32,000 bases of DNA, taken from positions 154,353-186,352 of the forward strand of contig CAZXEQ010000005.1 of NCBI GenBank assembly GCA_964640155.1. The letters run 5' to 3'. This DNA comes from an uncultured bacterium (GTDB taxonomy: Bacteria; Auribacterota; JACPWU01). The notes under the pieces were generated by a model that had not been told where the DNA came from, ran no database searches, and saw only the letters and a program-made list of their open reading frames with translations. Positions within the stretch are counted from its first letter, which is position 1, and every line of letters starts with the position of its first letter. The position numbers and the translations under genes were made by a program. Shown one piece after another: positions 1,979-28,947 of the stretch.

Positions 1979-4900
1979 TTAAGCTGCAACCTCAATTTCA
2001 GCCGGAGATCTTAAAACATGAGGAACACTTCGTGGCAACCCTGAAACTGCCTTTAAAACAGATTTTTTTAGAGAAATAGCGGTATCCGAAAGAGGTTGAT
2101 ACGCTTCCAACGCACGATCAAGCGCTTCTACAGAAGCTTGTGCAGAATCTAATTTTGACTTCAAAATCTCTGCTAATTGATGTGTTAACTCTTTTAAGAA
2201 TTGATCCCTTACTGATCCATCTAATATTGCATCTGCCCGTCTGGCACCTTCGGCTATCGCTCCTGCAAAATCGAAAGAATTACTAGCTTGTCGATAAGAA
2301 GCTAAAAAAGTTCTTATTTCTCCTTTTAGGACTTCTAAAGAATTCATCGTACTGAGAGGCGTCGCTTCGGTCCCTTTTTCCTCTTTCAACTCAATCTGAT
2401 TCAATTCAAGTTCTACACTCTGTCCACTTTCATCTTTTAACCAATGGATTTGAAGTGTCCCCTTCTCTTCATCGTAACTTAACAACTCTGGGAATGTATT
2501 CGATAACTCATTGAGATCTCTTAAGTAATATTCATAATCTCCTTCCGTTAAGTCTATTCTCCTTTGCCCTCTTAACACTCTCTCATGCAGTTCTTCTAAC
2601 AAATGATAATCCTCTTCACCCATCGCCTTCTCTTTACTTCGATCCTTCATTATTAAATATTCTTCTATTTTCTTAATTTTCTCTGCATCCAATGTCAGTT
2701 TTGTTCCTTGCCCTATTTCTCTTTCAAGGCTCTTGTTTTTCTTTTGTATGGCTTCTCTTAAGGTGTAGTAACCTTGTACTACTTGCTCTGTCCAAAATCT
2801 ATCAAAGGCCTCCAACCCTTCTGCCTCTAGTTTTTCTTTGAACAGTATGGCAAAAGAGCGATCCTGTTCTGTATGTTTTGCATTTCTTAATGTCTTCATA
2901 TCTCCAACTAAGATGAGTCGATCTGAAGCTCGACTCAATGCTACATTCAGCCGATTGATATTGGCGACAAAGCCTACTTTGCTTGGATCTGGGTTACTTC
3001 TTACAAAGCTATAGATGACTACTGCATTTTCTCTTCCCTGATAACTATCTACAGTCCCTATCTGGCTTTCTACGATAGCTTGTGCCTCATCTTTCTTCAT
3101 CTTTCTTTCTCTTATTAGATAGTCTCTTATCTTTTCTCTGATTAACTCTACCTGCGATTGATACGCTGATAATATACTTATCTGTTCTGATCTATACCCA
3201 GATGCCAATGCCCTTTTGTATTCTTCTAAGCATTTGTTTGCTTCTTCTGTGTTTTGATAGCTTGTACCCCTAGCTTCTTCATTGCCTGAAGCTTTTTTCA
3301 TAGGGACATCAACTCTTCTTACTGTGTCTTCTTCCATCATTCGCCATGTCTTAGGAACCATCATTTTGTTATAAATGAGTCGGCCTATCATGACGGATAT
3401 CACAGGATGGCTTCTATAGTTACGAGCTAAAAATGTTTGGGCTTGTCCTTTGTTCCATCTTCTTGCCATTCCACTTTCTTGGATCATTGCCCGATAGATG
3501 TCTGTTTGACCTTTCATCGCAGCTTCATCTATAAATGGCTCTAATTGTAAATGGTCTCCTGCTAAGATGATCTTTTCTTTTGCTTTTGCTCCTGCCAATA
3601 CCGTATCTATCTCATTGACGGTTCCTGCTTCATCTATAATGACAACATCATATTCTTGATCTGCCGTCTCCGGCACTCGATACATGGAGTCTGTTGTGAC
3701 TCCAACCACATATCCCTTTCCATTTGTTTTCCTTTTCTTAAACTCTTTCATTCCTTCCCCGTTATAGCCATCCTCCCTTGCTTGATTCCACACTTGATAT
3801 TTTCTTAGAGACTCTATAACTCGATCATCTCCTCTTCCTTCTTCTCCTCGACTATACGCTCTTAAAATAGGAACTTTATTTCGATCCAGTCGCTCTAATA
3901 CATTGTCTACGGCCAGATTTGTCCGACTGACCACCAATACTCTCTTGCCTTGCTTCACCAGCTGCTGTGCTATTTCTACCACTGTTGCGGTCTTCCCACT
4001 TCCTGCTCCTCCTTGTATCAACGCTACTTTTGTCCTAGGATGTAAGGCCATCCTTACAGCATTGGATTGGAATGGATCTTGAGCTACTCTTTCATCTTGG
4101 ATCTGAATCTTACTTTTCTCTTCGCTGATTTCTTCTTTATTGATTGTCTCTGGTTTTTCAAGCCCTAAAAGTTCTCTCGTTGCTCGACTTAAACCATTTC
4201 TTACTTGAGCTTTTCCTCCGATTGCTCTGAGCCTCTCTATTTGTATAGCTCTTAAGGCAACATTATTGCCTAGCTCTTTTTCTTTGCCTTCAACCATCTC
4301 TTTTAATTCTCCCAAAACGTTTTTCAGCTCCTTACTCTGAGAGCTATGTCCTACCTCTCCGGGTAGTTTTAATGATGTTACTTTGGCTTCTCTGTTATAT
4401 TCTTCATCTAAGATGCTTATTTCTGGTAATGCAATTCCAAATCGCCGGGCTGCTTCTAGAAGCGATTCATTGGGCTCTTTTCCATTGAGCAATGCCCAGC
4501 TGTCATTCGTTAGTCCTCTCCTTACTCTATCCTCTAACGCTTGCTCTACCAGACCGGGACTGGAATACCCTTGCGCTTTCATCACCCGCAACATCCAATG
4601 TCCATGTATAGGTGATTTAATCAGTCGACTTAATCGCGTGATCATTCTACCTTCAACTTCTCTTTGCGTCTCATAAATCCATTCTTCTAATGTTTCATCA
4701 TAAAATCGTCTCACTTTTACTTTGCCAGGTTTTCCAATTCCTGTGGAAAGTATAGCTTTCTTGTGCTTTCCATCATCAGTCCAAGAAAAATGGACTCTAC
4801 CACCGCTATACACTTCTGTTTTCCATTCCAAAGGTTCAAACCCATCCTTATTTTGGACATCTTGAGCCTTAAGCTGTTGAATAACTTTTTCTTTATTGCG

Positions 4901-7900
4901 ATCAAATATTTCAAGCTTCCAGAAATTTTTGCCCTCTTCCTTAACCAATCTAGATTGTTTTACAATTTCTTTTTGATTTTCTCCCTTCCCTTCTACTCGA
5001 CGCGTCTCATATACCCACTCTTTCAGATCTTCATCATAAAATCGGCTCGCCTGAACTCTTCCCTTTTTCATAGTGCCCGTAGCAAGACGAGCTCTCTTTT
5101 TCTGTCCATTGTCTATCAAAGAAAAATTAATTTGTCCGTAATTGTCTGATTCTGTTTCCCACTGCAGGGGCTCAAACTTATCCTTATTTTGGGCATCTTG
5201 GGCCTTAAGATGTTGAATAACTTTTTCTTTATTGCGATCAAACATTTCAAGCTTCCAGAAATTTTTGCCCTCTTCCTTAACCAATCTAGATTGCTTTACA
5301 ATTTCTTTTTGATTTTCTCCCTTCCCTTCTACTCGACGCGTCTCATATACCCACTCTTTCAGATCTTCATCATAAAAACGCCTCACTTTCACTTGTCCTT
5401 TTTTATTAACTCCTGTGGAAAGACGAACTTTTTCTATGTGTGCATTGTCCCTCCAAAAAAAGCCAACTAATCCAGCACTATCTGTATCTACAGTCCACTC
5501 CATAACCTCAAACGCATCCTTATTCTTGGCATCTTGGGCCTTAAGTTGTTGAATAACCTTCTCTTTATATCTATCAAATATTTCAAACTTCCAGAAATTT
5601 TTACCCTCTTCCTTAACCAGTCGTGATTGTCTAATTATCTCTTGCTTATTTTCCCCTTTCCCCTCTACACGCTGAGTCTCATACACCCATTCTTTAAGAT
5701 CTCTATCATAAAAACGCCTTACTTGAACTTGGCCTTTTTTCCCAGTCCCTGTAGAAAGATAGACCTCGTTTCTCTGTTCATTATCGGTCCAAAAAAAACC
5801 AACTAATCCAGCACTATTTGTCTCTACAGTCCACTCTAAGGGTTCAAATGTATCTTCATTTTGAGCATCTTGGGTCTTAAGCTGTTGAATAACCTTTTCT
5901 CTATAACGATCAAAGACTTCGAATTGCCAATAACCTTGGCCTTCTTCCTTAACCAGTCGTGATTGTCTAACGATCTCTTCTTGTTTTTCTCCATCTCCTT
6001 CTACACGTCGCGTCTCATAAATCCATTCTTTGAGCTCTTCATCATAAAATCGTCTTACTTGTACTCGGCCTTCTTTAGCAATGCCTGTGGAAAGATTCAC
6101 TGTCTTTTGCTGTTCCTTATCCGTCCAAGTAAAACTGATTAATCCTTTACTATCCGTATCTACAGTCAACTCTAGAGACTTAAATACATCCTTATTCCGA
6201 GCATCTTGAGTTTTAAGTTGCTGAATAATTTTCTCTTTATTGCGATCAAACCTTTCAAAATGCCAGTGATTTTGACCTTCTTCCTTAACCAGTCGTGATT
6301 GTCTAACGATCTCTTCTGCTTTTCCTTCTACACGTCGAGTCTCATAAATCCATTCTTTGAGCTCTTCATCATAAAATCGTCTCACCTGAGCTCTGCCGGT
6401 TTTAGCAATCCCCGTAGAAAGAATAACTGTCTTTTTCTGTTTATTGTCCGTCAAAAAAAATTTGACTTGACCATAAGCACTTGTATCTGTGATCCATTCA
6501 ATGGGCTCAAATGCAGTAGGTGACTGATCATCCAATTGTCGAAGTTGGCGCAAAACATCTACTCTTGCTTCTTTAGCTTCTAGCTTGCGATATTGCACTT
6601 CTTTCATCAAAGCTCCAGGTTTTATAACTCCATACAGATCAAATAAAAATGGATTTAATTGTTTTATTTCTCTCTGTAATATTCTCGCATCTTCTTCTGC
6701 AAGCTCTTTTTCTAATATCTCTTCATCAGGTTGCTCTCCAATTGGTGATTTCTTCAAAAATTCATGTACGGTTTCATGAGACATTCCAGTTAAAAACGAT
6801 GCTCTACGATGGGTTTTATCTTTGATATTCAAAAAGGCAAGGATATTGATGTAGTATTGGCCATCTGTTTTATGATTACCAAAAAGGGTTCGGTATTCTT
6901 TTTGGGTTCGATCCGATCCAAAATGAAGGGTAAATGGCCCAGCTGTTAATTCTATTCCCTGTAATCTATGTCGACTTCGAATAATTTTCCCCAATTCTGC
7001 ATAAAACTCATCACGACTCATGTCTGTTCCCACACCCATGGCCTTTTCCAAGCGTTTTAATTCTGGACTTTCATCAAATTTAATATCTCCATTCGTTACA
7101 GTAAACGTGACGTTTTTCCCATCCAATGCCTGATACGTTTCTGCATCTTCTGCCTCCGTTGGAGCAGCAAGGCCTTCGTTAACTTCAGCACTAAAATGGG
7201 CAATCTTTATCGTTTTATTTTCTTCGTATGTTCCCTTTCGCATATCATTCTTAAATTGTAAATATCCCCATAGGGTTAATCTACGTTCTTTCCAAATCTT
7301 ATTTCTATTATCTAATTGCTCCAAATGCTGTTTATATCTGGGCGTCTTTATATCATCCCTAGTTGCAAGTAATCGAGATAATTGACGATCTTGAGCTTCT
7401 TTTGTTAACTGGACAATTAATTCTTCATTAGCCTCACCTTGTTTATATTCTCTCTTCACCCCTTCAAAAAAATCACGATCCAAATATCCATGCAAAGCTT
7501 GAAAATAGTAATTTGTCTCTACTTTTCTCAACTCTTCTATAGAGGCTTGAATAGATGTTATAATATTTTCTAATTCTGATTCATCAGCCCTTCCCTTTAC
7601 AACTTGATTTAATAACTCAAAAAGTTTTTCTTCTTCTTTGCGTTCGATCTCTTGTCTCCTCTGAATATCAGCAAGAAGTCCCAAAACGCTTCTTTCTTCT
7701 AAAAGATAAATTTGCTTACGGGTATATTGGGGAATTGCATTTTCATAACTAAACGCTACAGAAACCCCTCGATCAACTTTTTTGTCGTTTCTTCCTTCAT
7801 AATTCATTAATACATAATCAACTTCATGTAATGCTTTATTTCCGATTGCTACTACCTCTTCATCGCCTTTCGTTGCCGCCGCTTCTCCACCTTTTCTTCC

Positions 7901-10900
7901 ATAGTGACATAAGGCCGTCGTTACAGCATGCGTTACATATTTGGCTTCTTGACTATCTACTTCTAAAGAGCCACGATAAATCGTCGTTACCAGTTGAATC
8001 GTAGTAATAATGAAACCTTTATCATCTACTCGATATCCTATTTCTTCCATTAAAGCTAGAACTTCGATTTTGTAACTTTCATCTACTTTTAAATCTTTCA
8101 ATAAATCGCTAAAAGCGTATCTCCCTTCATTTTCCTTAAGTCTAAGTTTTGACCGCAGGGAAATCATTCCAGGCAATAAATAAGGATTTGTAGTTTGATC
8201 AGCTAATTCTTGAATTAAATCGCTGCTATATGAAACAATAGCGTTCGCATGATTCAAAAGCAAAGCCCTGACACGATCTTTAAGTGAGTATGCATCACTT
8301 ACTTCTTCTTCCTTAAGATAAGCGATTCTGAGATGTAAAAACGGATTTTGGGAAACACTAGTCCATGTCTTATCCTGAATGCCTTCTACACGCGCAAAAT
8401 CTTGATATCCAAAACTGTCACTCATCACAAGCAGGCCTATATCCACGAGATTCTCCTGGGAGATACTTTGAATTTCTTTCTCATTTTCCAGTCTAATAAT
8501 ATCGCCTAAAAGCAAAGCTTCTAAACCCTGATAAACCAATGGAGCATCCTTGCCCTTTAAATCAAAGCGGTTCATCACTCGGCTTAAAATCTGTATATCT
8601 TCTTCTTTCTGGAGTACCCCTTTAGAAAATAATACCGCAAAAAACTGAGGCCCCCATAGAGAACCTAGCCATTCCTGATCAATCACGTCTTTCAATAACT
8701 CTCTCATCTTAGGAATATTCTCCGCTGTCAATGCTCCTTGAGTCACCAAGCGGTTTATAACGCGATAACGATTCATCGTTTTTCTGCTTACAGGTTTTGA
8801 CAATCCTTGAAACCAATTTCGAGAATTTTCTAAATTCTCTTCGGTCTTTGCACCGCTTTCAAGAAGAGAAGAAAATGCATCTAGAGCCAAAGGACCGCTA
8901 ATCCATGGTTCACGACTAATGACTTCAACAACATGCAAAAACCAATCTTTGTTGCCGGGGTTTATATCTTCTGGAAGGCTGCCCAAAACCTCAAAACGCT
9001 TATCTTTAAATGAGTCATGATTGGCATCAATCTGGTCTATCACTTCTACAATAAGATCAAGATTTAATGTTCTAGAGTATAAAACCTGCGCTACGATGCC
9101 TCTTGCGACCAATAGACTAAAAACACGTTTGGTTTTCCAATTATTTGTCCAGCTTCTGTCCGCTATTTTTTCTAAAGTTTCCAATAAAGAATTCTGCATT
9201 TGTTCAGGATAGCTATCAAAGGTAACAGATATAAACTGCAACATTTCAATAACAGCACTTGAAGATGCCGGCCTCAGTTGAGCAATCCTATCCATCCAAT
9301 TTAAAAACTCTGCAAGGTTTTTTTCTGTTATTACACCCGATTTCACCAAACCGATAAAAACTTCTTTTCCCCTAGGAATTCTTAACCACTTATCGTTTTT
9401 AAAGGTTTCCAAAAAATCACTGATGGTTTGAACAATATCTTTTAATTTTTCATCTTCTGCAGCAGCACTTTCTAAATCACGAATAAGCGCTCTTGTTAAA
9501 TCAGACATAACAACTAGAGGGACAACTACTGAAGCAAGCTCATCTTTTTTCTGCCCCTCTAAACTTTCAAAATATTCTCTTACAATCTGAGTTAAAACAG
9601 AATCTTCTCCAAAAGCCTTGTTCATCATGTCTAACCAAATTTTAGCTTGTGTTGGATTTGAAGCATTCGCTTCAGGGAAATTCACAAATTGTGACAACAA
9701 AGTTCGCAAAGATGTATGTTCTTGTTCATCTAAACCATCCCAAATCCTAGAAAGCCAACCTTCAAATATTTGGCGCGGGGATCGGCCTTGTGCTAAACCT
9801 TCCCGTAAATCATCTGCCATCATATTCTCAAGAACAGGTCGTTTTGGCTCTCCAATTTGAGCCCAAATATTTCCTGTAGGAGCAGGATTTTGAAGCATTT
9901 TCTGAATTTCACTTGAGCTATGCCCCACTAAACGTTTTTCAGAAAATTCTACATTTTCTAAATCATAGGCCTCGTCCATCATGATTCTTTCATATAAATC
10001 AGAAGAAATATCTCCATTCACTTGAGGGGTCCATGTGGTATACGAAATCCCCTTTGCCTCTAAAAGCTTTTGAATTCCTTCGGTGTGAAAGCCACCGGTG
10101 ATTAAAATGATTGTACGCTGTGCAGCTTTGTTCATATTTTTTAAAGCATTCTCCAAAAGAATTTGGTCTCGTTTTTGAGCTAATTCATAAAAATGTTGGG
10201 CTTCTTGAATGAGTAAATCCCAATCTTTAGAGAAAGAAGGAGATTTTAGAGAAGTAAGCATGAAACCTAACTGTCGAAACAATTCTTGAGGAGATTTTTC
10301 AACTGTTTCTACAAGTTCTTTTCTTGAAAGTTCTAAATTGATCCATTTCTGCAATAAATGCCATTGTTCATTTATTTTTACAATATTTTCTACCTTTTCT
10401 TGATCCGCTTGTTTCTTGATTTGTTCATCTATCAATTGCGATAAATTTAAATGTGCTTTATCAAAATCAATTTTCCCCTGCTGCTGAAGAAAATCAATCC
10501 AAATTTCCAGTGTGGGGTATTGTCGCTTAAAAGAGTTTTTACTGATCTTTTCTTCAAAAATATTTTTCAAGAAAGAAAAGTGTTTTACAGTGGATAATTT
10601 GCCTAAACGATATTCCAAGCTACTTCTTACAACATTTTGAAGTTCTTCTCTAGAGAGTCTGTTCTGAAAGGATTGCAACAACTCATTATATTCTTTTTGT
10701 ACCTTTGCAGAATCAATCTCTTTTTGCAAAGTATTTAACTGCCATAACTCATTTGTTTTTAATAATTTATCTAAATCCGCTTTTTCGAGCAAAGCAATGA
10801 TCTTTTCCAAAGAAAATTTATTGCTGCTCATTCCTTTTTGAGCTTGATCTAAAAGCAGTAACTTTTTTGAATATGATTTCTTTTTAATACTTTCTAACCA

Positions 10901-11473
10901 CTGATTGAAATTTTCTATTTCGTCTTTAAGCTTTTGATAAAGCAACCGTGTTTGTCTGAAGGCCTTAAAATTTTCAAGATAAATTTCAGAATTTTCTACA
11001 CCCATCAAATCAATTTTGCTTTCAGGGCCTTCTGAAATCACTGCAAATTCTGCACCTGTTAAATACCCTTCATTCAAAAATTTCTTAGCTACATTTTTGC
11101 GAATATTCGAATCTGGAAAAGATTGATAGAGAAGTGTTCTTAGGGGCCCTTCAGCACCTTCTACAAAAACCTGATCAATTCCTTTTTGATTCAAAGCTAA
11201 AATACTTTGAGCAATTTTTTCTTGAGCCTCAGGCTGGCAATGTAAATCTCGTATTAGAAAAATATTATTCTTCGAATTACTTTGATAGTTTTTGCCTTGT
11301 ATCATTCCAGGCAATGAAAGATCTTTAAAAGAGATTGGTAAAGAGGCAGAAAAAGAAGGACTGGCTTCTAATGTAGAAACTACTCCGACATTTAAAATAA
11401 GATTAAAAACGAGAAATGGAACAAGAACCATTTTCAACCATCGATAGCTTTGTGAGGGACACAAAAATGACAT
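1979..11473 (-). CDS. Giant multidomain protein, 3164 aa. Contains a signal/anchor, TraB/Tiki-like halves, an HExxH region, two repeat arrays and an SF1 helicase.
   Basis: An uninterrupted 9.5-kb frame in an AT-rich genome, with an ATG start. The helicase motifs are unambiguous, and the internal repeats are in frame. All overlapping plus-strand ORFs are short shadow ORFs. Confidence 0.9.
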   Translation of the reverse strand: MSFLCPSQSYRWLKMVLVPFLVFNLILNVGVVSTLEASPSFSASLPISFKDLSLPGMIQGKNYQSNSKNNIFLIRDLHCQPEAQEKIAQSILALNQKGIDQVFVEGAEGPLRTLLYQSFPDSNIRKNVAKKFLNEGYLTGAEFAVISEGPESKIDLMGVENSEIYLENFKAFRQTRLLYQKLKDEIENFNQWLESIKKKSYSKKLLLLDQAQKGMSSNKFSLEKIIALLEKADLDKLLKTNELWQLNTLQKEIDSAKVQKEYNELLQSFQNRLSREELQNVVRSSLEYRLGKLSTVKHFSFLKNIFEEKISKNSFKRQYPTLEIWIDFLQQQGKIDFDKAHLNLSQLIDEQIKKQADQEKVENIVKINEQWHLLQKWINLELSRKELVETVEKSPQELFRQLGFMLTSLKSPSFSKDWDLLIQEAQHFYELAQKRDQILLENALKNMNKAAQRTIILITGGFHTEGIQKLLEAKGISYTTWTPQVNGDISSDLYERIMMDEAYDLENVEFSEKRLVGHSSSEIQKMLQNPAPTGNIWAQIGEPKRPVLENMMADDLREGLAQGRSPRQIFEGWLSRIWDGLDEQEHTSLRTLLSQFVNFPEANASNPTQAKIWLDMMNKAFGEDSVLTQIVREYFESLEGQKKDELASVVVPLVVMSDLTRALIRDLESAAAEDEKLKDIVQTISDFLETFKNDKWLRIPRGKEVFIGLVKSGVITEKNLAEFLNWMDRIAQLRPASSSAVIEMLQFISVTFDSYPEQMQNSLLETLEKIADRSWTNNWKTKRVFSLLVARGIVAQVLYSRTLNLDLIVEVIDQIDANHDSFKDKRFEVLGSLPEDINPGNKDWFLHVVEVISREPWISGPLALDAFSSLLESGAKTEENLENSRNWFQGLSKPVSRKTMNRYRVINRLVTQGALTAENIPKMRELLKDVIDQEWLGSLWGPQFFAVLFSKGVLQKEEDIQILSRVMNRFDLKGKDAPLVYQGLEALLLGDIIRLENEKEIQSISQENLVDIGLLVMSDSFGYQDFARVEGIQDKTWTSVSQNPFLHLRIAYLKEEEVSDAYSLKDRVRALLLNHANAIVSYSSDLIQELADQTTNPYLLPGMISLRSKLRLKENEGRYAFSDLLKDLKVDESYKIEVLALMEEIGYRVDDKGFIITTIQLVTTIYRGSLEVDSQEAKYVTHAVTTALCHYGRKGGEAAATKGDEEVVAIGNKALHEVDYVLMNYEGRNDKKVDRGVSVAFSYENAIPQYTRKQIYLLEERSVLGLLADIQRRQEIERKEEEKLFELLNQVVKGRADESELENIITSIQASIEELRKVETNYYFQALHGYLDRDFFEGVKREYKQGEANEELIVQLTKEAQDRQLSRLLATRDDIKTPRYKQHLEQLDNRNKIWKERRLTLWGYLQFKNDMRKGTYEENKTIKIAHFSAEVNEGLAAPTEAEDAETYQALDGKNVTFTVTNGDIKFDESPELKRLEKAMGVGTDMSRDEFYAELGKIIRSRHRLQGIELTAGPFTLHFGSDRTQKEYRTLFGNHKTDGQYYINILAFLNIKDKTHRRASFLTGMSHETVHEFLKKSPIGEQPDEEILEKELAEEDARILQREIKQLNPFLFDLYGVIKPGALMKEVQYRKLEAKEARVDVLRQLRQLDDQSPTAFEPIEWITDTSAYGQVKFFLTDNKQKKTVILSTGIAKTGRAQVRRFYDEELKEWIYETRRVEGKAEEIVRQSRLVKEEGQNHWHFERFDRNKEKIIQQLKTQDARNKDVFKSLELTVDTDSKGLISFTWTDKEQQKTVNLSTGIAKEGRVQVRRFYDEELKEWIYETRRVEGDGEKQEEIVRQSRLVKEEGQGYWQFEVFDRYREKVIQQLKTQDAQNEDTFEPLEWTVETNSAGLVGFFWTDNEQRNEVYLSTGTGKKGQVQVRRFYDRDLKEWVYETQRVEGKGENKQEIIRQSRLVKEEGKNFWKFEIFDRYKEKVIQQLKAQDAKNKDAFEVMEWTVDTDSAGLVGFFWRDNAHIEKVRLSTGVNKKGQVKVRRFYDEDLKEWVYETRRVEGKGENQKEIVKQSRLVKEEGKNFWKLEMFDRNKEKVIQHLKAQDAQNKDKFEPLQWETESDNYGQINFSLIDNGQKKRARLATGTMKKGRVQASRFYDEDLKEWVYETRRVEGKGENQKEIVKQSRLVKEEGKNFWKLEIFDRNKEKVIQQLKAQDVQNKDGFEPLEWKTEVYSGGRVHFSWTDDGKHKKAILSTGIGKPGKVKVRRFYDETLEEWIYETQREVEGRMITRLSRLIKSPIHGHWMLRVMKAQGYSSPGLVEQALEDRVRRGLTNDSWALLNGKEPNESLLEAARRFGIALPEISILDEEYNREAKVTSLKLPGEVGHSSQSKELKNVLGELKEMVEGKEKELGNNVALRAIQIERLRAIGGKAQVRNGLSRATRELLGLEKPETINKEEISEEKSKIQIQDERVAQDPFQSNAVRMALHPRTKVALIQGGAGSGKTATVVEIAQQLVKQGKRVLVVSRTNLAVDNVLERLDRNKVPILRAYSRGEEGRGDDRVIESLRKYQVWNQAREDGYNGEGMKEFKKRKTNGKGYVVGVTTDSMYRVPETADQEYDVVIIDEAGTVNEIDTVLAGAKAKEKIILAGDHLQLEPFIDEAAMKGQTDIYRAMIQESGMARRWNKGQAQTFLARNYRSHPVISVMIGRLIYNKMMVPKTWRMMEEDTVRRVDVPMKKASGNEEARGTSYQNTEEANKCLEEYKRALASGYRSEQISILSAYQSQVELIREKIRDYLIRERKMKKDEAQAIVESQIGTVDSYQGRENAVVIYSFVRSNPDPSKVGFVANINRLNVALSRASDRLILVGDMKTLRNAKHTEQDRSFAILFKEKLEAEGLEAFDRFWTEQVVQGYYTLREAIQKKNKSLEREIGQGTKLTLDAEKIKKIEEYLIMKDRSKEKAMGEEDYHLLEELHERVLRGQRRIDLTEGDYEYYLRDLNELSNTFPELLSYDEEKGTLQIHWLKDESGQSVELELNQIELKEEKGTEATPLSTMNSLEVLKGEIRTFLASYRQASNSFDFAGAIAEGARRADAILDGSVRDQFLKELTHQLAEILKSKLDSAQASVEALDRALEAYQPLSDTAISLKKSVLKAVSGLPRSVPHVLRSPAEIEVAA
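2894..4066 (-). other. Upf1/DNA2-like superfamily-1 helicase module of the giant ORF (aa ~2470-2860)
   Basis: Ordered motif set:
- Walker A GGAGSGKT (nt 3989-4012, checked against the DNA)
- motif Ia SRTNLAVDNVLERL
- motif II VIIDEAG
- motif III ILAGDHLQLEP
- motif IV NYRSHPVI
- motif V TVDSYQGRE
- motif VI RLNVALSRA
This matches the AAA_11/AAA_12-type Upf1/Sen1/DNA2 pattern. Confidence 0.85.
4574..6511 (-). repeat. In-frame tandem coding repeat: five full units of ~112 aa (336 nt) plus one degenerate unit (aa 1655 to ~2300 of the giant ORF)
   Basis: Unit starts (FEPxEW-like) fall at aa 1655, 1764, 1876, 1988, 2100 and 2212, giving periods of 109 then 112 x4. The consensus core is LSTGxxKxGxVxVRRFYDExLKEWxYETRRVEGxGExxxEIVxQSRLVKEEGxNxWxFExFDRxKEKVIQQLKxQDAxNKD. 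Confidence 0.9.
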
Positions 11474-14539: not shown

Positions 14540-14613
<74 letters not shown>

Positions 14614-14710: not shown

Positions 14711-14782
14711 GCCAGGGTAGCTCAGAGGTAGAGCGGGGCTCTCATAAGGCCTAGGTCGTGGGTTCGATTCCCCCCTCTGGCA
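14711..14782 (+). tRNA. tRNA with CAU anticodon: either elongator Met or tRNA-Ile2 (the lysidine substrate)
   Basis: Manual cloverleaf: acceptor GCCAGGG/CTCTGGC, D arm GCTC-AGAGGTA-GAGC, anticodon loop CTCATAA, T loop TTCGATT. There is one U50-C64 mismatch in the T stem. Met versus Ile2 identity cannot be decided by eye. Confidence 0.75.
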
Positions 14783-26278: not shown

Positions 26279-26402
26279 CTCTTATCCAGAGTGGCTGAGG
26301 GAAAGGCCCGATGATGCCACGGCAACCGCTCCGATAATAATCGGGGGCCAGGTGCTAACTCCTCTATTCAAAGGAATTAAGCTTTGAATGGAAAGATAAG
26401 AA
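26279..26402 (+). promoter_or_regulatory. SAM-I (S-box) riboswitch aptamer
   Basis: CTCTTATCcAGAGtGGctGAGGGAaaGGCCCGATGAtgCCacGGCAACC...GGTGCTAAcTCC...aGATAAGA matches the conserved S-box core and P1 helix. Confidence 0.9.
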
Positions 26403-26487: not shown

Positions 26488-27738
26488 GTGAAAGTAACCA
26501 CTGAAAAGAAATCTTATGTTTTAGGCCTGCGTTGTCGAGAATGTAATAAAGAATATACTCAGCAACCACTTCATGTGTGTGAAGATTGCTTTGGTCCTTT
26601 AGAAGCAGTTTATGATTATCCAGCCATTAAAAAAGTTCTTTCAAGAGAAAAAATTCTTTCTCGACGTCCTACGATGTGGCGTTATCGCGAATTGCTTCCT
26701 ATTGATGGAGATCCAACAGTCGGACTCGAAGTTGGTTTCACCCCCTTCTTTCGCTCAAAACGCTTAGCCGAAGCACTTGGACTTCAAGAACTTTATATTA
26801 AAAATGATGCAGTTAATCACCCTACTCTTTCTTTTAAAGATCGTGTTGTAGCTGTAGCACTTTCTAAAGCAAAAGAATTTGGATTTAAAACCGTGGCTTG
26901 TGCTTCCACAGGAAATTTAGCCAATTCCGTCGCCGCCAATGCATCTCAGGCAGGGCTTGAAAGCTATATTTTTATTCCTGCTGATTTAGAGCAAGGCAAA
27001 GTTCTAGGAACCTTAGTGTTTGGAACAAATCTCATTGGCATTCATGGAACATATGATGAAGTCAATCGCCTTTGCAGTGAGATTGCAGATAAATATGGTT
27101 GGGCCTTTGTAAATATTAATATCCGTCCCTTTTATGGAGAAGGCTCTAAGACCTATACCTTCGAAATTATGGAACAAATGGGCTGGCGAGTTCCACAAAA
27201 TATCGTGGTGCCTATGGCAGGAGGCTCTTTGATCACAAAAGTTCGAAAAGCGATGAAAGAGTTTTACGATTTGGGTTTGGTCGAAGATCATTCAACCAAA
27301 ATTCATGGAGCTCAAGCCGAAGGATGCGGTCCTATAGTTCATGCGGTTCTTGCGGGTCATGAATTTTTTAAGCCTGAAAAGCCCAATACTATTGCAAAAT
27401 CTTTGGCCATTGGAAATCCCGCTGATGGTTTTTATGCCATTAAGACAATTCGAGAAACGGGAGGTTGGGCCAATGGAGCAACTGACGAAGAAATCGTAGA
27501 CGCGATAAAACTCTTAGCCTCTACCGAAGGGATCTTTACAGAAACCGCCGGAGGTGTTACGCTTGCTGTCTTAAAAAAATTGATTGCATCAGGGCATATC
27601 CCTAAAGATGAATCTGTTGTTTTATGTATCACGGGGAATGGTCTCAAAACTCAGGAAGCACTTGTGGGTAAAGTGGGCCAGCCCACATTGATTGAAGCAA
27701 AACTTTCAGAGTTTGATAAAATATATAAGAAACCGTAA
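26488..27738 (+). CDS. Threonine-synthase-family PLP enzyme with N-terminal zinc ribbon
   Basis: PLP-lysine motif HPTLSFKDR, and an N-terminal CRECN...CEDC. GTG start with AAGGGG upstream. Confidence 0.85.
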   Translation: MKVTTEKKSYVLGLRCRECNKEYTQQPLHVCEDCFGPLEAVYDYPAIKKVLSREKILSRRPTMWRYRELLPIDGDPTVGLEVGFTPFFRSKRLAEALGLQELYIKNDAVNHPTLSFKDRVVAVALSKAKEFGFKTVACASTGNLANSVAANASQAGLESYIFIPADLEQGKVLGTLVFGTNLIGIHGTYDEVNRLCSEIADKYGWAFVNINIRPFYGEGSKTYTFEIMEQMGWRVPQNIVVPMAGGSLITKVRKAMKEFYDLGLVEDHSTKIHGAQAEGCGPIVHAVLAGHEFFKPEKPNTIAKSLAIGNPADGFYAIKTIRETGGWANGATDEEIVDAIKLLASTEGIFTETAGGVTLAVLKKLIASGHIPKDESVVLCITGNGLKTQEALVGKVGQPTLIEAKLSEFDKIYKKP

Positions 27739-28362: not shown

Positions 28363-28947
28363 ATGTCAAAAGGCTTTACCCTCTGGTTTACAGGTCTTTC
28401 CGGTGCAGGAAAATCAACCTTGGCTTCTCTTTTTAATGAAGCGTTCAAAACCATCGAAAGAAAAGTAGAGCTTTTAGATGGAGATGAAGTTCGAACCCAT
28501 TTAAGCAAAGGCTTAAGCTTTAGCAAAGAAGACCGTGATATTAATATCCGCCGTATTGGTTTTGTCTGCAAACTCCTTACCCGAAATGATGTGATTGCTA
28601 TTACCGCTGCTATTTCACCTTATCGAGAAGTTCGAGAAGAAATTCGTAAAGACATCAAAAACTTTGTAGAAGTGTATGTCCAATGCCCGATCAAAGCCTT
28701 AGCCAAACGTGACGTCAAAGGACTTTATAAAAAAGCGTTGGCAGGAGAAGTGAAAAATTTTACAGGGATTTCGGATCCTTATGAAGAACCTCTCCACCCC
28801 GAAGTCACTGTGCATTCTGACAAAGAAACCGTAGAAGAAAGTGCTTCAAAAGTCATTACTAAACTTCTTGAACTTCGCTATCTTTCTAAAGATGAATTCA
28901 GTCGCATCAAAGACACTTTTAAAAAGTCCTCAAAAACATTAAAATAA
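28363..28947 (+). CDS. cysC: Adenylyl-sulfate (APS) kinase
   Basis: P-loop GLSGAGKST, then LDGDEVR and FSKEDRDINIRR, all typical of CysC. Confidence 0.85.
   Translation: MSKGFTLWFTGLSGAGKSTLASLFNEAFKTIERKVELLDGDEVRTHLSKGLSFSKEDRDINIRRIGFVCKLLTRNDVIAITAAISPYREVREEIRKDIKNFVEVYVQCPIKALAKRDVKGLYKKALAGEVKNFTGISDPYEEPLHPEVTVHSDKETVEESASKVITKLLELRYLSKDEFSRIKDTFKKSSKTLK

Follow-up and report, generated by a model that had tools for sequence, protein, structure and literature searches.

The 32,000-nucleotide window analysed here (contig CAZXEQ010000005.1 of assembly GCA_964640155.1, positions 154,353 to 186,352, from an uncultured bacterium of the Auribacterota) encodes a giant protein of 3,164 amino acids (aa), the middle of which carries six tandem copies of a ~112-aa domain, each predicted to form a ~90-aa seven-stranded antiparallel β-meander that passes through a short α-helix into the next copy. 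The domain defines an unannotated family in enigmatic giant proteins and possibly, judging from its modelled structure, a new fold. The existence of the repeat domain, its structure prediction, its pattern of selection and exchange and the distribution of its family are held with high confidence; the function of the array is proposed far more tentatively.

The open reading frame (ORF) of the giant protein occupies 9,495 nt of the minus strand (1979-11473), its frame is intact, and it contains the array together with every other part of the protein described below, all coordinates being those of the window and all features lying on the minus strand unless marked otherwise. An identical protein is present in the searched public protein collection (P0002). 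The original prediction, made from the letters and translations of the window, had proposed six tandem units, and this was borne out: a hidden Markov model (HMM) of the unit recovered exactly six domains, beginning at aa 1655, 1764, 1876, 1988, 2100 and 2212 as proposed (independent E-values 3e-40 to 2e-63), and Tandem Repeats Finder returned an agreeing period of 336 nt (4.9 copies, 78% matches, score 1461) at 4822-6460. With these HMM boundaries, unit 1 (aa 1655-1763, 109 aa) lies at 6185-6511, unit 2 (aa 1764-1875) at 5849-6184, unit 3 (aa 1876-1987) at 5513-5848, unit 4 (aa 1988-2099) at 5177-5512, unit 5 (aa 2100-2211) at 4841-5176 and the terminal unit 6 (aa 2212-2304), delimited also by the family HMM, at 4562-4840. 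A capping helix ahead of unit 1 (aa 1630-1654, KLEAKEARVDVLRQLRQLDDQSPTA; 6512-6586) is homologous to the inter-unit helices; the alignment to the family HMM, built from A2, an alignment that draws 43 units from the window protein and from related proteins, begins upstream of unit 1, from profile position 6, and a capping helix also precedes the first unit in the homologues P0001, P0004 and P0009. Because a helix of the same type precedes unit 1, the layout of the array is helix-(β-module-helix)x6, and its true extent is about 4562-6586. An antisense GTG-initiated ORF of 128 aa across units 4-6 (4763-5149, plus strand) was considered and set aside as probably spurious, the minus-strand frame having homologues with the same units.

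Within units 1-5, identity is 72-93% over the C-terminal ~70 aa, with units 4 and 5 near-identical as had been described (93% in aa, 96% in nt), and 37-67% over the N-terminal ~43 aa. The motifs on which two N-terminal subtypes had been founded are literally present (YGQVKFFLTDNKQKK in unit 1 and YGQINFSLIDNGQKK in unit 5; KGLISFTWTD in unit 2 and AGLVGFFW(T/R)D in units 3 and 4), but the subtype uniting units 1 and 5 is without statistical support in a Sawyer-type run test (P=0.39). The DNA of the β2-β3 hairpin is 74% identical between these two units and 57-69% identical in the remaining pairs within units 1-5 to which either belongs; over the whole N-terminal half, the aa identity of unit 1 to unit 5 is 51% and to unit 2 or 3 is 53%. 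Unit 6, which had been taken for a hybrid with a decaying tail, instead aligns at full length to the family HMM (positions 5-116), with all seven strands complete, and a diverged helix (PGLVEQALEDRVRRGL) comes after it; this copy diverges most, as terminal repeats usually do.

AlphaFold2 modelling of aa 1851-1987, that is, unit 3 together with the helix that precedes it, gave a mean predicted local distance difference test (pLDDT) score of 93.2 and a predicted template modelling (pTM) score of 0.85, with a helix at residues 6-16 of the model, strands at 29-34, 40-47, 50-57, 65-73, 78-87, 94-104 and 111-116, and a closing helix at 118-135, in line with the β-rich unit and terminal helix that had been anticipated. 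The variable N-terminal half corresponds to β1-β3, and the conserved half to the STG loop, β4 (VxVRRFYD), β5 (EWxYETxR), β6 (SRL), β7 and the helix. A model of three units (aa 1851-2211) reached a pLDDT of 90.8 and a pTM of 0.82, the inter-unit helices scoring 94-96 in pLDDT; the three-unit pTM and the helix scores therefore indicate a fixed geometry between units, and the helices are predicted to lock adjacent β-modules into a continuous rigid array rather than beads on a string.

The original prediction recognised no named domain in the unit, and profile comparison agrees: Pfam-A, NCBIfam, PHROGs and PADLOC profiles recognised only the helicase region of the giant protein, the best other match in the repeat region being phrog_27020 (E 1.5e-4, function unknown, 0 stretches), and the family profile found no PDB sequence, and no Pcf11 chain, at E≤10. 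Structure prediction and a Foldseek search had been proposed as checks, and the confident single-unit model likewise has no significant structural relative in the PDB or BFVD when a fold relative is defined by E<1e-3 or a TM score ≥0.5. The best matches to one unit (lipocalins, PilZ and MYDGF) reached E 0.26, with TM at most 0.30 and probability at most 0.35; calycin-like barrels (lipocalins or siderocalins, fatty acid-binding proteins) and PilZ resemble the unit in that 7-8 antiparallel strands run up and down as a meander flanked by a helix, but these scores are non-significant, and the unit sequence does not show the PilZ motifs RxxxR and D/NxSxxG in that order. Three units gave a best E of 0.011 (TM at most 0.18) and comparison with BFVD a best E of 0.038; among the Foldseek results no nucleic-acid-binding fold (OB, KH, S1, RRM, Tudor or other) resembled the unit.

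The units could, alternatively, be divergent C-terminal zinc-finger domains of Pcf11, given that Pcf11_C (PF21936) scores 32.6 bits over the whole protein, above its gathering score of 26.7, and that a precomputed PF21936 annotation exists for the homologue P0001. That score, however, is summed over repeats, with 0 stretches passing alone: two single units match at 12.3 and 12.7 bits (E 0.12-0.17), the other four have no match, 4 of the 43 family units match at E<1 (best 0.0068), and the match covers only positions 11-37 of the 54 in the profile. The Pcf11 C-terminal domain is a CCHC zinc finger of ~70 aa (ScPcf11 538-608; PMC5159653), the zinc ligands of the yeast protein being Cys564, Cys567, His596 and Cys599 (PMC5159653); the unit is 112 aa in length, with long strands and no Cys/His zinc ligands, none of the six copies containing a cysteine or CCHC ligands, and is bacterial and tandem, whereas the Pcf11 domain is eukaryotic, single and C-terminal. 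Membership was rejected on the sub-threshold scores of single units, the missing zinc ligands, structural similarity below the level set for a fold relative and the lack of any PDB-sequence or Foldseek link, which makes descent from this zinc finger exceedingly improbable. What the two have in common is a helix-seven strands-helix order and a D-x4-EW β-hairpin motif, (F/Y)YD-x4-EW-x-Y in the unit against the β4-β5 'petal' of Pcf11 with its invariant Trp, a protein-binding site (PMC5159653); this resemblance is sub-threshold and is not membership. The label is an annotation trap, in which summed repeat scores lift a spurious Pcf11_C assignment past the Pfam whole-protein threshold.

An HMM search from the units, which the original prediction had suggested, was run exhaustively, as a profile search, over 1.84 billion representative proteins and matched 16 of them at E≤0.001: the window protein itself, 14 real others, in which the number of units ranges from 1 to 7 (distant homologues compared), and one false positive, the NACHT-WD40 protein P0013, raised by summed weak repeat matches of ≤7 bits each. 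Scans of GTDB genomes, JGI metagenomes and IMG/VR with the unit profile yielded no confirmed relative, and a word-indexed protein search with A2 returned only P0008 and P0032, a 124-aa fragment.

Members of the family differ in their partner domains. P0003, P0004, P0005 (from a 'Chlamydiae bacterium' metagenome-assembled genome, MAG) and P0016 carry the repeats, the same ~150-aa linker, an orthologous Upf1-like helicase and the C-terminal region, and L009, a Margulisiibacteriota contig, bears the same repeat-linker-helicase module, cut at the contig end; with the window protein, this layout is found in six independent proteins, so that the juxtaposition of array and helicase noted in the original prediction is recurrent. 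A scan of GTDB with a linker-helicase profile gave 69 loci, of which L009, from a Margulisiibacteriota MAG with a degenerate unit visible by eye ahead of the linker, was the one true orthologue and the other 68 were generic superfamily 1 (SF1) helicases (22-30% identity) without repeat units. Elsewhere the domain accompanies a methyltransferase and GNAT (P0007), a methyltransferase (P0014), GGDEF and HAD (P0012), a helix-turn-helix domain (P0011) or a pyridoxal phosphate (PLP) enzyme (P0015); P0010 has no recognised partner domain, and P0001, P0006, P0008 and P0009 are small proteins made of units only. The domain is thus associated strictly with one helicase clade and modularly with varied other enzymes, and most of its members are giant multi-enzyme proteins of uncultivated bacteria. 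Because P0001, from a Spirochaetes MAG, stands alone with four units in 462 aa (stop codons upstream, no hydrophobic N-terminus), the array has a function of its own.

Two of these homologues carry features of separate interest. P0016 (1,292 aa, from a Logan contig) has Trp at positions where Gly is invariant in all orthologues (WSPWSWKS vs GGAGSGKT, AWDH vs AGDH), and its genome looks, from these substitutions, like one that reads UGA as Gly (code 25), here translated as UGA=Trp. At the P0004 locus (L008, 16339-26231), the next gene is another giant ORF of >4,178 aa with a MutS_V domain, which runs off the locus.

The original prediction read the two halves of the unit as what gene conversion would leave if it kept a scaffold uniform while a surface segment was diversified or shuffled. 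Synonymous (dS) and non-synonymous (dN) divergence were estimated by the Nei-Gojobori method for pairs among units 1-5, per half-unit. In the conserved half, dS is 1.1-1.9 in 7 of the 10 pairs, 0.72 for units 1 and 3 and 0.46 for units 1 and 2, with only units 4 and 5 low (0.08), which does not fit conversion as what keeps the scaffold uniform; dN lies at 0.09-0.15 for the pairs other than units 4 and 5 (mean dN/dS about 0.12), and units 4 and 5 have a dN of 0.04 and a dN/dS of 0.5. Because conserved-half dS is high while dN is low, the uniformity of the C-terminal half is mostly the outcome of purifying selection on the protein; low dS across most pairs, expected if homogenisation were its general cause, was not found. 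In the variable half, dS is 0.47-1.61 and dN 0.24-0.47 (mean dN/dS about 0.43), which marks relaxed constraint without positive selection. The comparison of dN/dS per half-unit that had been proposed, made here between units of the array, thus separates the halves, but in neither does the mean ratio exceed 1. Diversification of the variable half by a diversity-generating retroelement was rejected: 20-41% of mismatches fall at adenine against an adenine content of 34%, and no reverse transcriptase occurs among the window ORFs. The entropy gradient along the unit, which peaks in β2-β3 and reaches its minimum in the STG loop, β4 and β5, is matched in 37 units of other proteins; because of this agreement, the gradient is intrinsic to the domain rather than peculiar to the array in the window.

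The mosaic pattern itself was upheld, in that exchange tracts are significant for three pairs of units. The longest joins units 4 and 5 (unit nt 136-341, from β4 to the helix and the first bases of the next unit; copies at 5172-5377 and 4836-5041, respectively): about 206 nt with 7 mismatches (about 97% identity), an 83-nt exact run and 22 concordant polymorphic sites in a run (Sawyer-type permutation test, global P<0.0002). A short concordant tract in the variable half links unit 3 (5799-5817) to unit 4 (5463-5481) through 14 concordant polymorphic sites (run test, pairwise P=0.003, global P=0.03), and units 1 and 2 are 98% identical across β4-β5 (pairwise P=0.014), the core of their tract being a 44-nt exact run at 6339-6382 and 6012-6055, respectively. 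The array has accordingly been remodelled by occasional unequal crossing-over or gene conversion, at these three pairs only; long concordant tracts with low dS, the signature of concerted evolution, are found for some pairs of units. Units of one protein resemble each other more than they do those of other proteins: similarity is 0.61 inside the window protein and averages 0.24 across proteins.

Conversion coupled with diversification or shuffling of the surface half, taken as a means to vary a binding specificity, does gain from these tracts, from the incongruent grouping of the halves (units 2, 3 and 4 together by the N-terminal part; units 1 and 2, and units 4 and 5, by the C-terminal part) and from the divergence of terminal unit 6, which concerted evolution would lead one to expect. 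Against it stand the high synonymous divergence in eight of the ten pairs, the family-wide gradient, a variable-half dN/dS below 1, the unsupported subtype of units 1 and 5 and the lack of both adenine-biased mutation and a reverse transcriptase. It is best seen as a minor component, largely refuted as the main cause and improbable as a full account; the evolutionary 'mosaic' is ordinary repeat-array behaviour. The case carries a lesson of method: a repeat can be highly uniform in the amino acids of one half without gene conversion being the cause, and synonymous divergence tells selection from homogenisation.

The mosaic or the number of units could also be an assembly artefact of a short-read MAG. 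Repeats break k-mer assemblies, and a Logan contig (L078, SRR8893623) ends at window position 6353, inside the 44-nt run of units 1 and 2; the contig of a sister genome (L080, GCA_041906865.1) stops 328 aa into the gene, and units 4 and 5 have the 83-nt exact run in common. Yet exact runs apart from those of 83 and 44 nt are ≤28 nt, all but the run of units 4 and 5 are shorter than reads and large k-mers, seven distinguishing mismatches remain in the tract of units 4 and 5, and the 9.5 kb reading frame is intact. L078 matches the window at 99.99% from 14589 to 6353, up to unit 1; two MAG assemblies give the same sequence for the homologous array of P0005 (between P0005 and P0017 the one difference is the truncated N-terminus), and tandem arrays of the same domain occur in the 14 other proteins. 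An artefact is therefore judged very unlikely. Since independent assemblies break inside these genes (L078, L080), the rarity of the family is probably overstated, its genes being usually truncated or missing in fragmented MAGs.

The giant protein runs from a signal-like N-terminus through a HExxH region to the array in its middle, and on through the conserved linker to a Upf1-like 5'-3' helicase. A Kyte-Doolittle scan marks a hydrophobic segment at aa 15-33 (MVLVPFLVFNLILNVGVVS; 11375-11431), preceded by R and K, which looks like a signal peptide or membrane anchor; comparable hydrophobic N-termini occur in P0004, P0007, P0011 and P0012, and the full-length giant members start in signal-like fashion. 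These N-termini stand on proteins with ATP-, S-adenosylmethionine (SAM)-, acetyl-CoA- or GTP-dependent enzymes, which could be anchored with their bulk in the cytoplasm or exported, or delivered into another cell. The region aa 70-486 (10016-11266) is homologous to aa 68-476 of P0015 (E 5e-15), whose cargo is a PLP enzyme and not a helicase, and P0007 and P0012 have a common N-terminal region with different cargo; because both pairs share N-terminal regions and differ in cargo, an architecture of shared head, repeat arm and swappable cargo is suggested.

Comparison of motif context identified a HExxH motif (MSHETVHEF; aa 1566-1570, 6764-6778) about 90 aa upstream of unit 1. P0005 has two instances of a similar context, F-x-[ND]-H-x-x-[DN]-G ... 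HExxHE, and P0010 and P0015 also contain HExxH; the region, which has no profile match, may be a zincin-like self-processing peptidase or its remnant. Beyond the array, a trailing helix and the conserved ~150-aa linker (GLTNDSWALLNGKEPNESLLEAARRFGIALPEISILDEEYNREAKV...; 4094-4561) are conserved in P0003, P0004, P0005, P0016 and L009, and lead to a Upf1-like SF1B helicase core (2834-4093) with a Walker A motif GGAGSGKT and a DEAG motif (IDEAGT). This core matches AAA_11 (2e-21, 77.2 bits) and AAA_12 (8e-35, 120.6 bits), both above threshold, and its best relatives among PDB sequences are UPF1, NAM7 and IGHMBP2 (E about 1e-40), followed by ZNFX1, Aquarius, DNA2 and SEN1. The PADLOC match to a MkoA-like protein (1e-57) is restricted to the generic helicase core, and no defence partner gene accompanies it among the window ORFs. 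A further conserved region (YTLREAIQ ... LHERVL ... W(L)KDE; 2369-2833), recognised by alignment and phmmer, follows the helicase.

The function proposed for the array, which is favoured here although its probability falls somewhat short of even, is that of a rigid scaffold or multivalent binding arm of evolvable length. The array, which would not itself be catalytic, would position the C-terminal enzyme, and its row of similar but non-identical hairpin surfaces could bind an extended partner multivalently; where a helicase is linked, the likeliest such partner would be the nucleic-acid substrate or a protein bound to that substrate. Across the family the conserved core comprises the STG loop, β4 RRFYD, β5 EWxYETxR and β6 SRL, whereas β1-β3 tolerate change, the β2-β3 hairpin above all.

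Several points weigh against this proposal and the structure on which it builds. The rigidity of the rod is read from pTM and pLDDT only, on a three-unit alignment that is shallow (15 rows, several of them from the window), and the order of units across the 83-nt exact repeat of units 4 and 5 is the one given by the assembly. A signal-like N-terminus conflicts with an ATP-dependent helicase working in the cytoplasm of the producing cell. The net charge of units across the family ranges from -10 to +14 and offers no uniform electrostatic signature for nucleic-acid binding, and the conserved Arg residues are matched by conserved Asp/Glu, as in the predicted cross-strand pair R69/E82, which on sequence grounds points to salt bridges with a structural role and not to a site for a ligand. 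A pure spacer role leaves the stand-alone protein unexplained, and no structural analogue points to any particular function.

The leading alternative holds that the units bind nucleic acid, loading or tethering RNA or single-stranded DNA for the Upf1-like helicase with each unit engaging one stretch of the polymer. All six members of the helicase subfamily have the array immediately N-terminal to the conserved linker, the generic SF1 helicases from GTDB are without such units, isoelectric points are basic (9.0 for the window array, 8.8-9.9 for the stand-alone proteins), four Arg per unit are conserved across the family, and another member, P0011, contains a helix-turn-helix domain. Upf1-like helicases, moreover, commonly carry β-barrel accessory domains. 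About half of the family, however, lacks a helicase and is partnered by methyltransferase/GNAT, GGDEF/HAD or PLP enzymes; many units are acidic, the conserved Arg residues are balanced by acidic ones, and Foldseek found none of the folds associated with such binding. This alternative is accordingly viewed as possible but doubtful. Slightly less plausible again is an array that serves as a platform for protein-protein docking or assembly, on which each unit would bind either a partner or a further copy and so organise a complex of several enzymes, be it at the membrane or within a host or prey cell; the varied enzymatic cargo and signal-like N-termini of the giant proteins, the existence of a stand-alone array and the correspondence of the only sequence echo, the D-x4-EW hairpin, to the protein-binding β4-β5 petal of Pcf11 (PMC5159653) are in its favour, but the Pcf11 likeness is sub-threshold, and the flanks of the window, L007 and L008 differ, revealing no partner gene that is conserved in the neighbourhood.

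Tandem β-domain stalks on giant surface proteins of bacteria (Big/Ig-like, Rib, G5-E and 'periscope'-type, from general knowledge) likewise consist of head-to-tail β-rich modules of about 100 aa, with higher similarity of units within a protein, variable unit number, exchange tracts, predicted rigidity and signal-like N-termini. They have no sequence or fold relation to the modules of the window, which are joined by an integral α-helix, have a DNA identity of only 62-85% for most pairs of units with saturated dS, and are accompanied by cargo of a cytosolic type (helicase, methyltransferase, GGDEF), the stand-alone form being without an export signal. The accessory β-barrels of Upf1-like SF1B helicases (UPF1 1B/CH, IGHMBP2, SEN1, Aquarius and MOV10-type) are also β-rich modules N-terminal to a core of the same superfamily; unlike them, the units form six tandem copies outside the core, with the ~150-aa conserved linker between, have no Foldseek match and also occur without a helicase. 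Polyvalent or polymorphic giant proteins, again an analogy from general knowledge, join an N-terminal trafficking part, central repeats, an optional HExxH peptidase and variable C-terminal enzymes; the family compares with them in that one N-terminal region and the repeats go with different C-terminal cargo (the window protein and P0015; P0007 and P0012) and in the HExxH motif near the array, but the cargo here includes no recognised toxins, there is no immunity gene, and the repeats are not of RHS/YD or haemagglutinin type.

Around the giant gene, the neighbours within the window are ordinary chromosomal genes, with neither an immunity gene nor a mobile-element context among these housekeeping functions: PNP, TilS, two tRNA-Met genes, a family 2 glycosyltransferase (GT2), P-II, Amt, a GAF histidine kinase, Def, PolX, a major facilitator superfamily (MFS) transporter, a PLP enzyme under a SAM riboswitch, adenosine phosphosulphate (APS) kinase and TonB. 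The downstream ORF (1-1834), of at least 611 aa with a hydrophobic start, runs off the window; its aa 54-165 and aa 524-635 of the giant protein form a common 112-aa module (56% identity, blastp E=3.5e-38), and it appears from this similarity to be a second, paralogous large protein beside the giant one. Kinase-like motifs are visible in it by eye (VVKR, DVKPKHLL, LIDLS), with no Pfam or PHROG match. The sister genome (L080, GCA_041906865.1) has the same synteny, with TilS 85% identical and the first 328 aa of the giant homologue 92% identical. The best relative with a name is a 'Chlamydiae bacterium' MAG at 43%, which makes the taxonomic placement tentative. Two tandem tRNA-Met (CAT) genes (14540-14613 and 14711-14782, plus strand) lie between a Zn-ribbon ORF and the GT2 gene, and the matching gap in the sister genome is occupied by a PDDEXK_5 gene and by a 261-aa ORF that has no annotation. 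A SAM-I riboswitch (77 bits; 26279-26402, plus strand) is directly upstream of the PLP-enzyme ORF (26488-27738), with APS kinase farther downstream (28363-28947).

A domain this rare, with a confidently predicted fold and no relative by sequence or Foldseek, lends itself well to a new domain entry and to the solving of its structure. In the most far-reaching interpretation, which is speculative and held with low confidence, the unit would be both a new fold and a new family, a helix-bridged seven-stranded β-meander forming a rigid rod in cis, and would mark out a class of giant multi-enzyme proteins not recognised before, which bear signal-like N-termini and belong to uncultivated bacteria (Chlamydiae- and Margulisiibacteriota-labelled MAGs and a UGA-recoded genome), the rod serving as the substrate or partner arm of a dedicated Upf1-like helicase clade, possibly acting in another cell. 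The domain links scattered giant multi-enzyme proteins of uncultivated lineages, in which a common N-terminal part and a repeat arm go with enzymatic cargo that is interchangeable.

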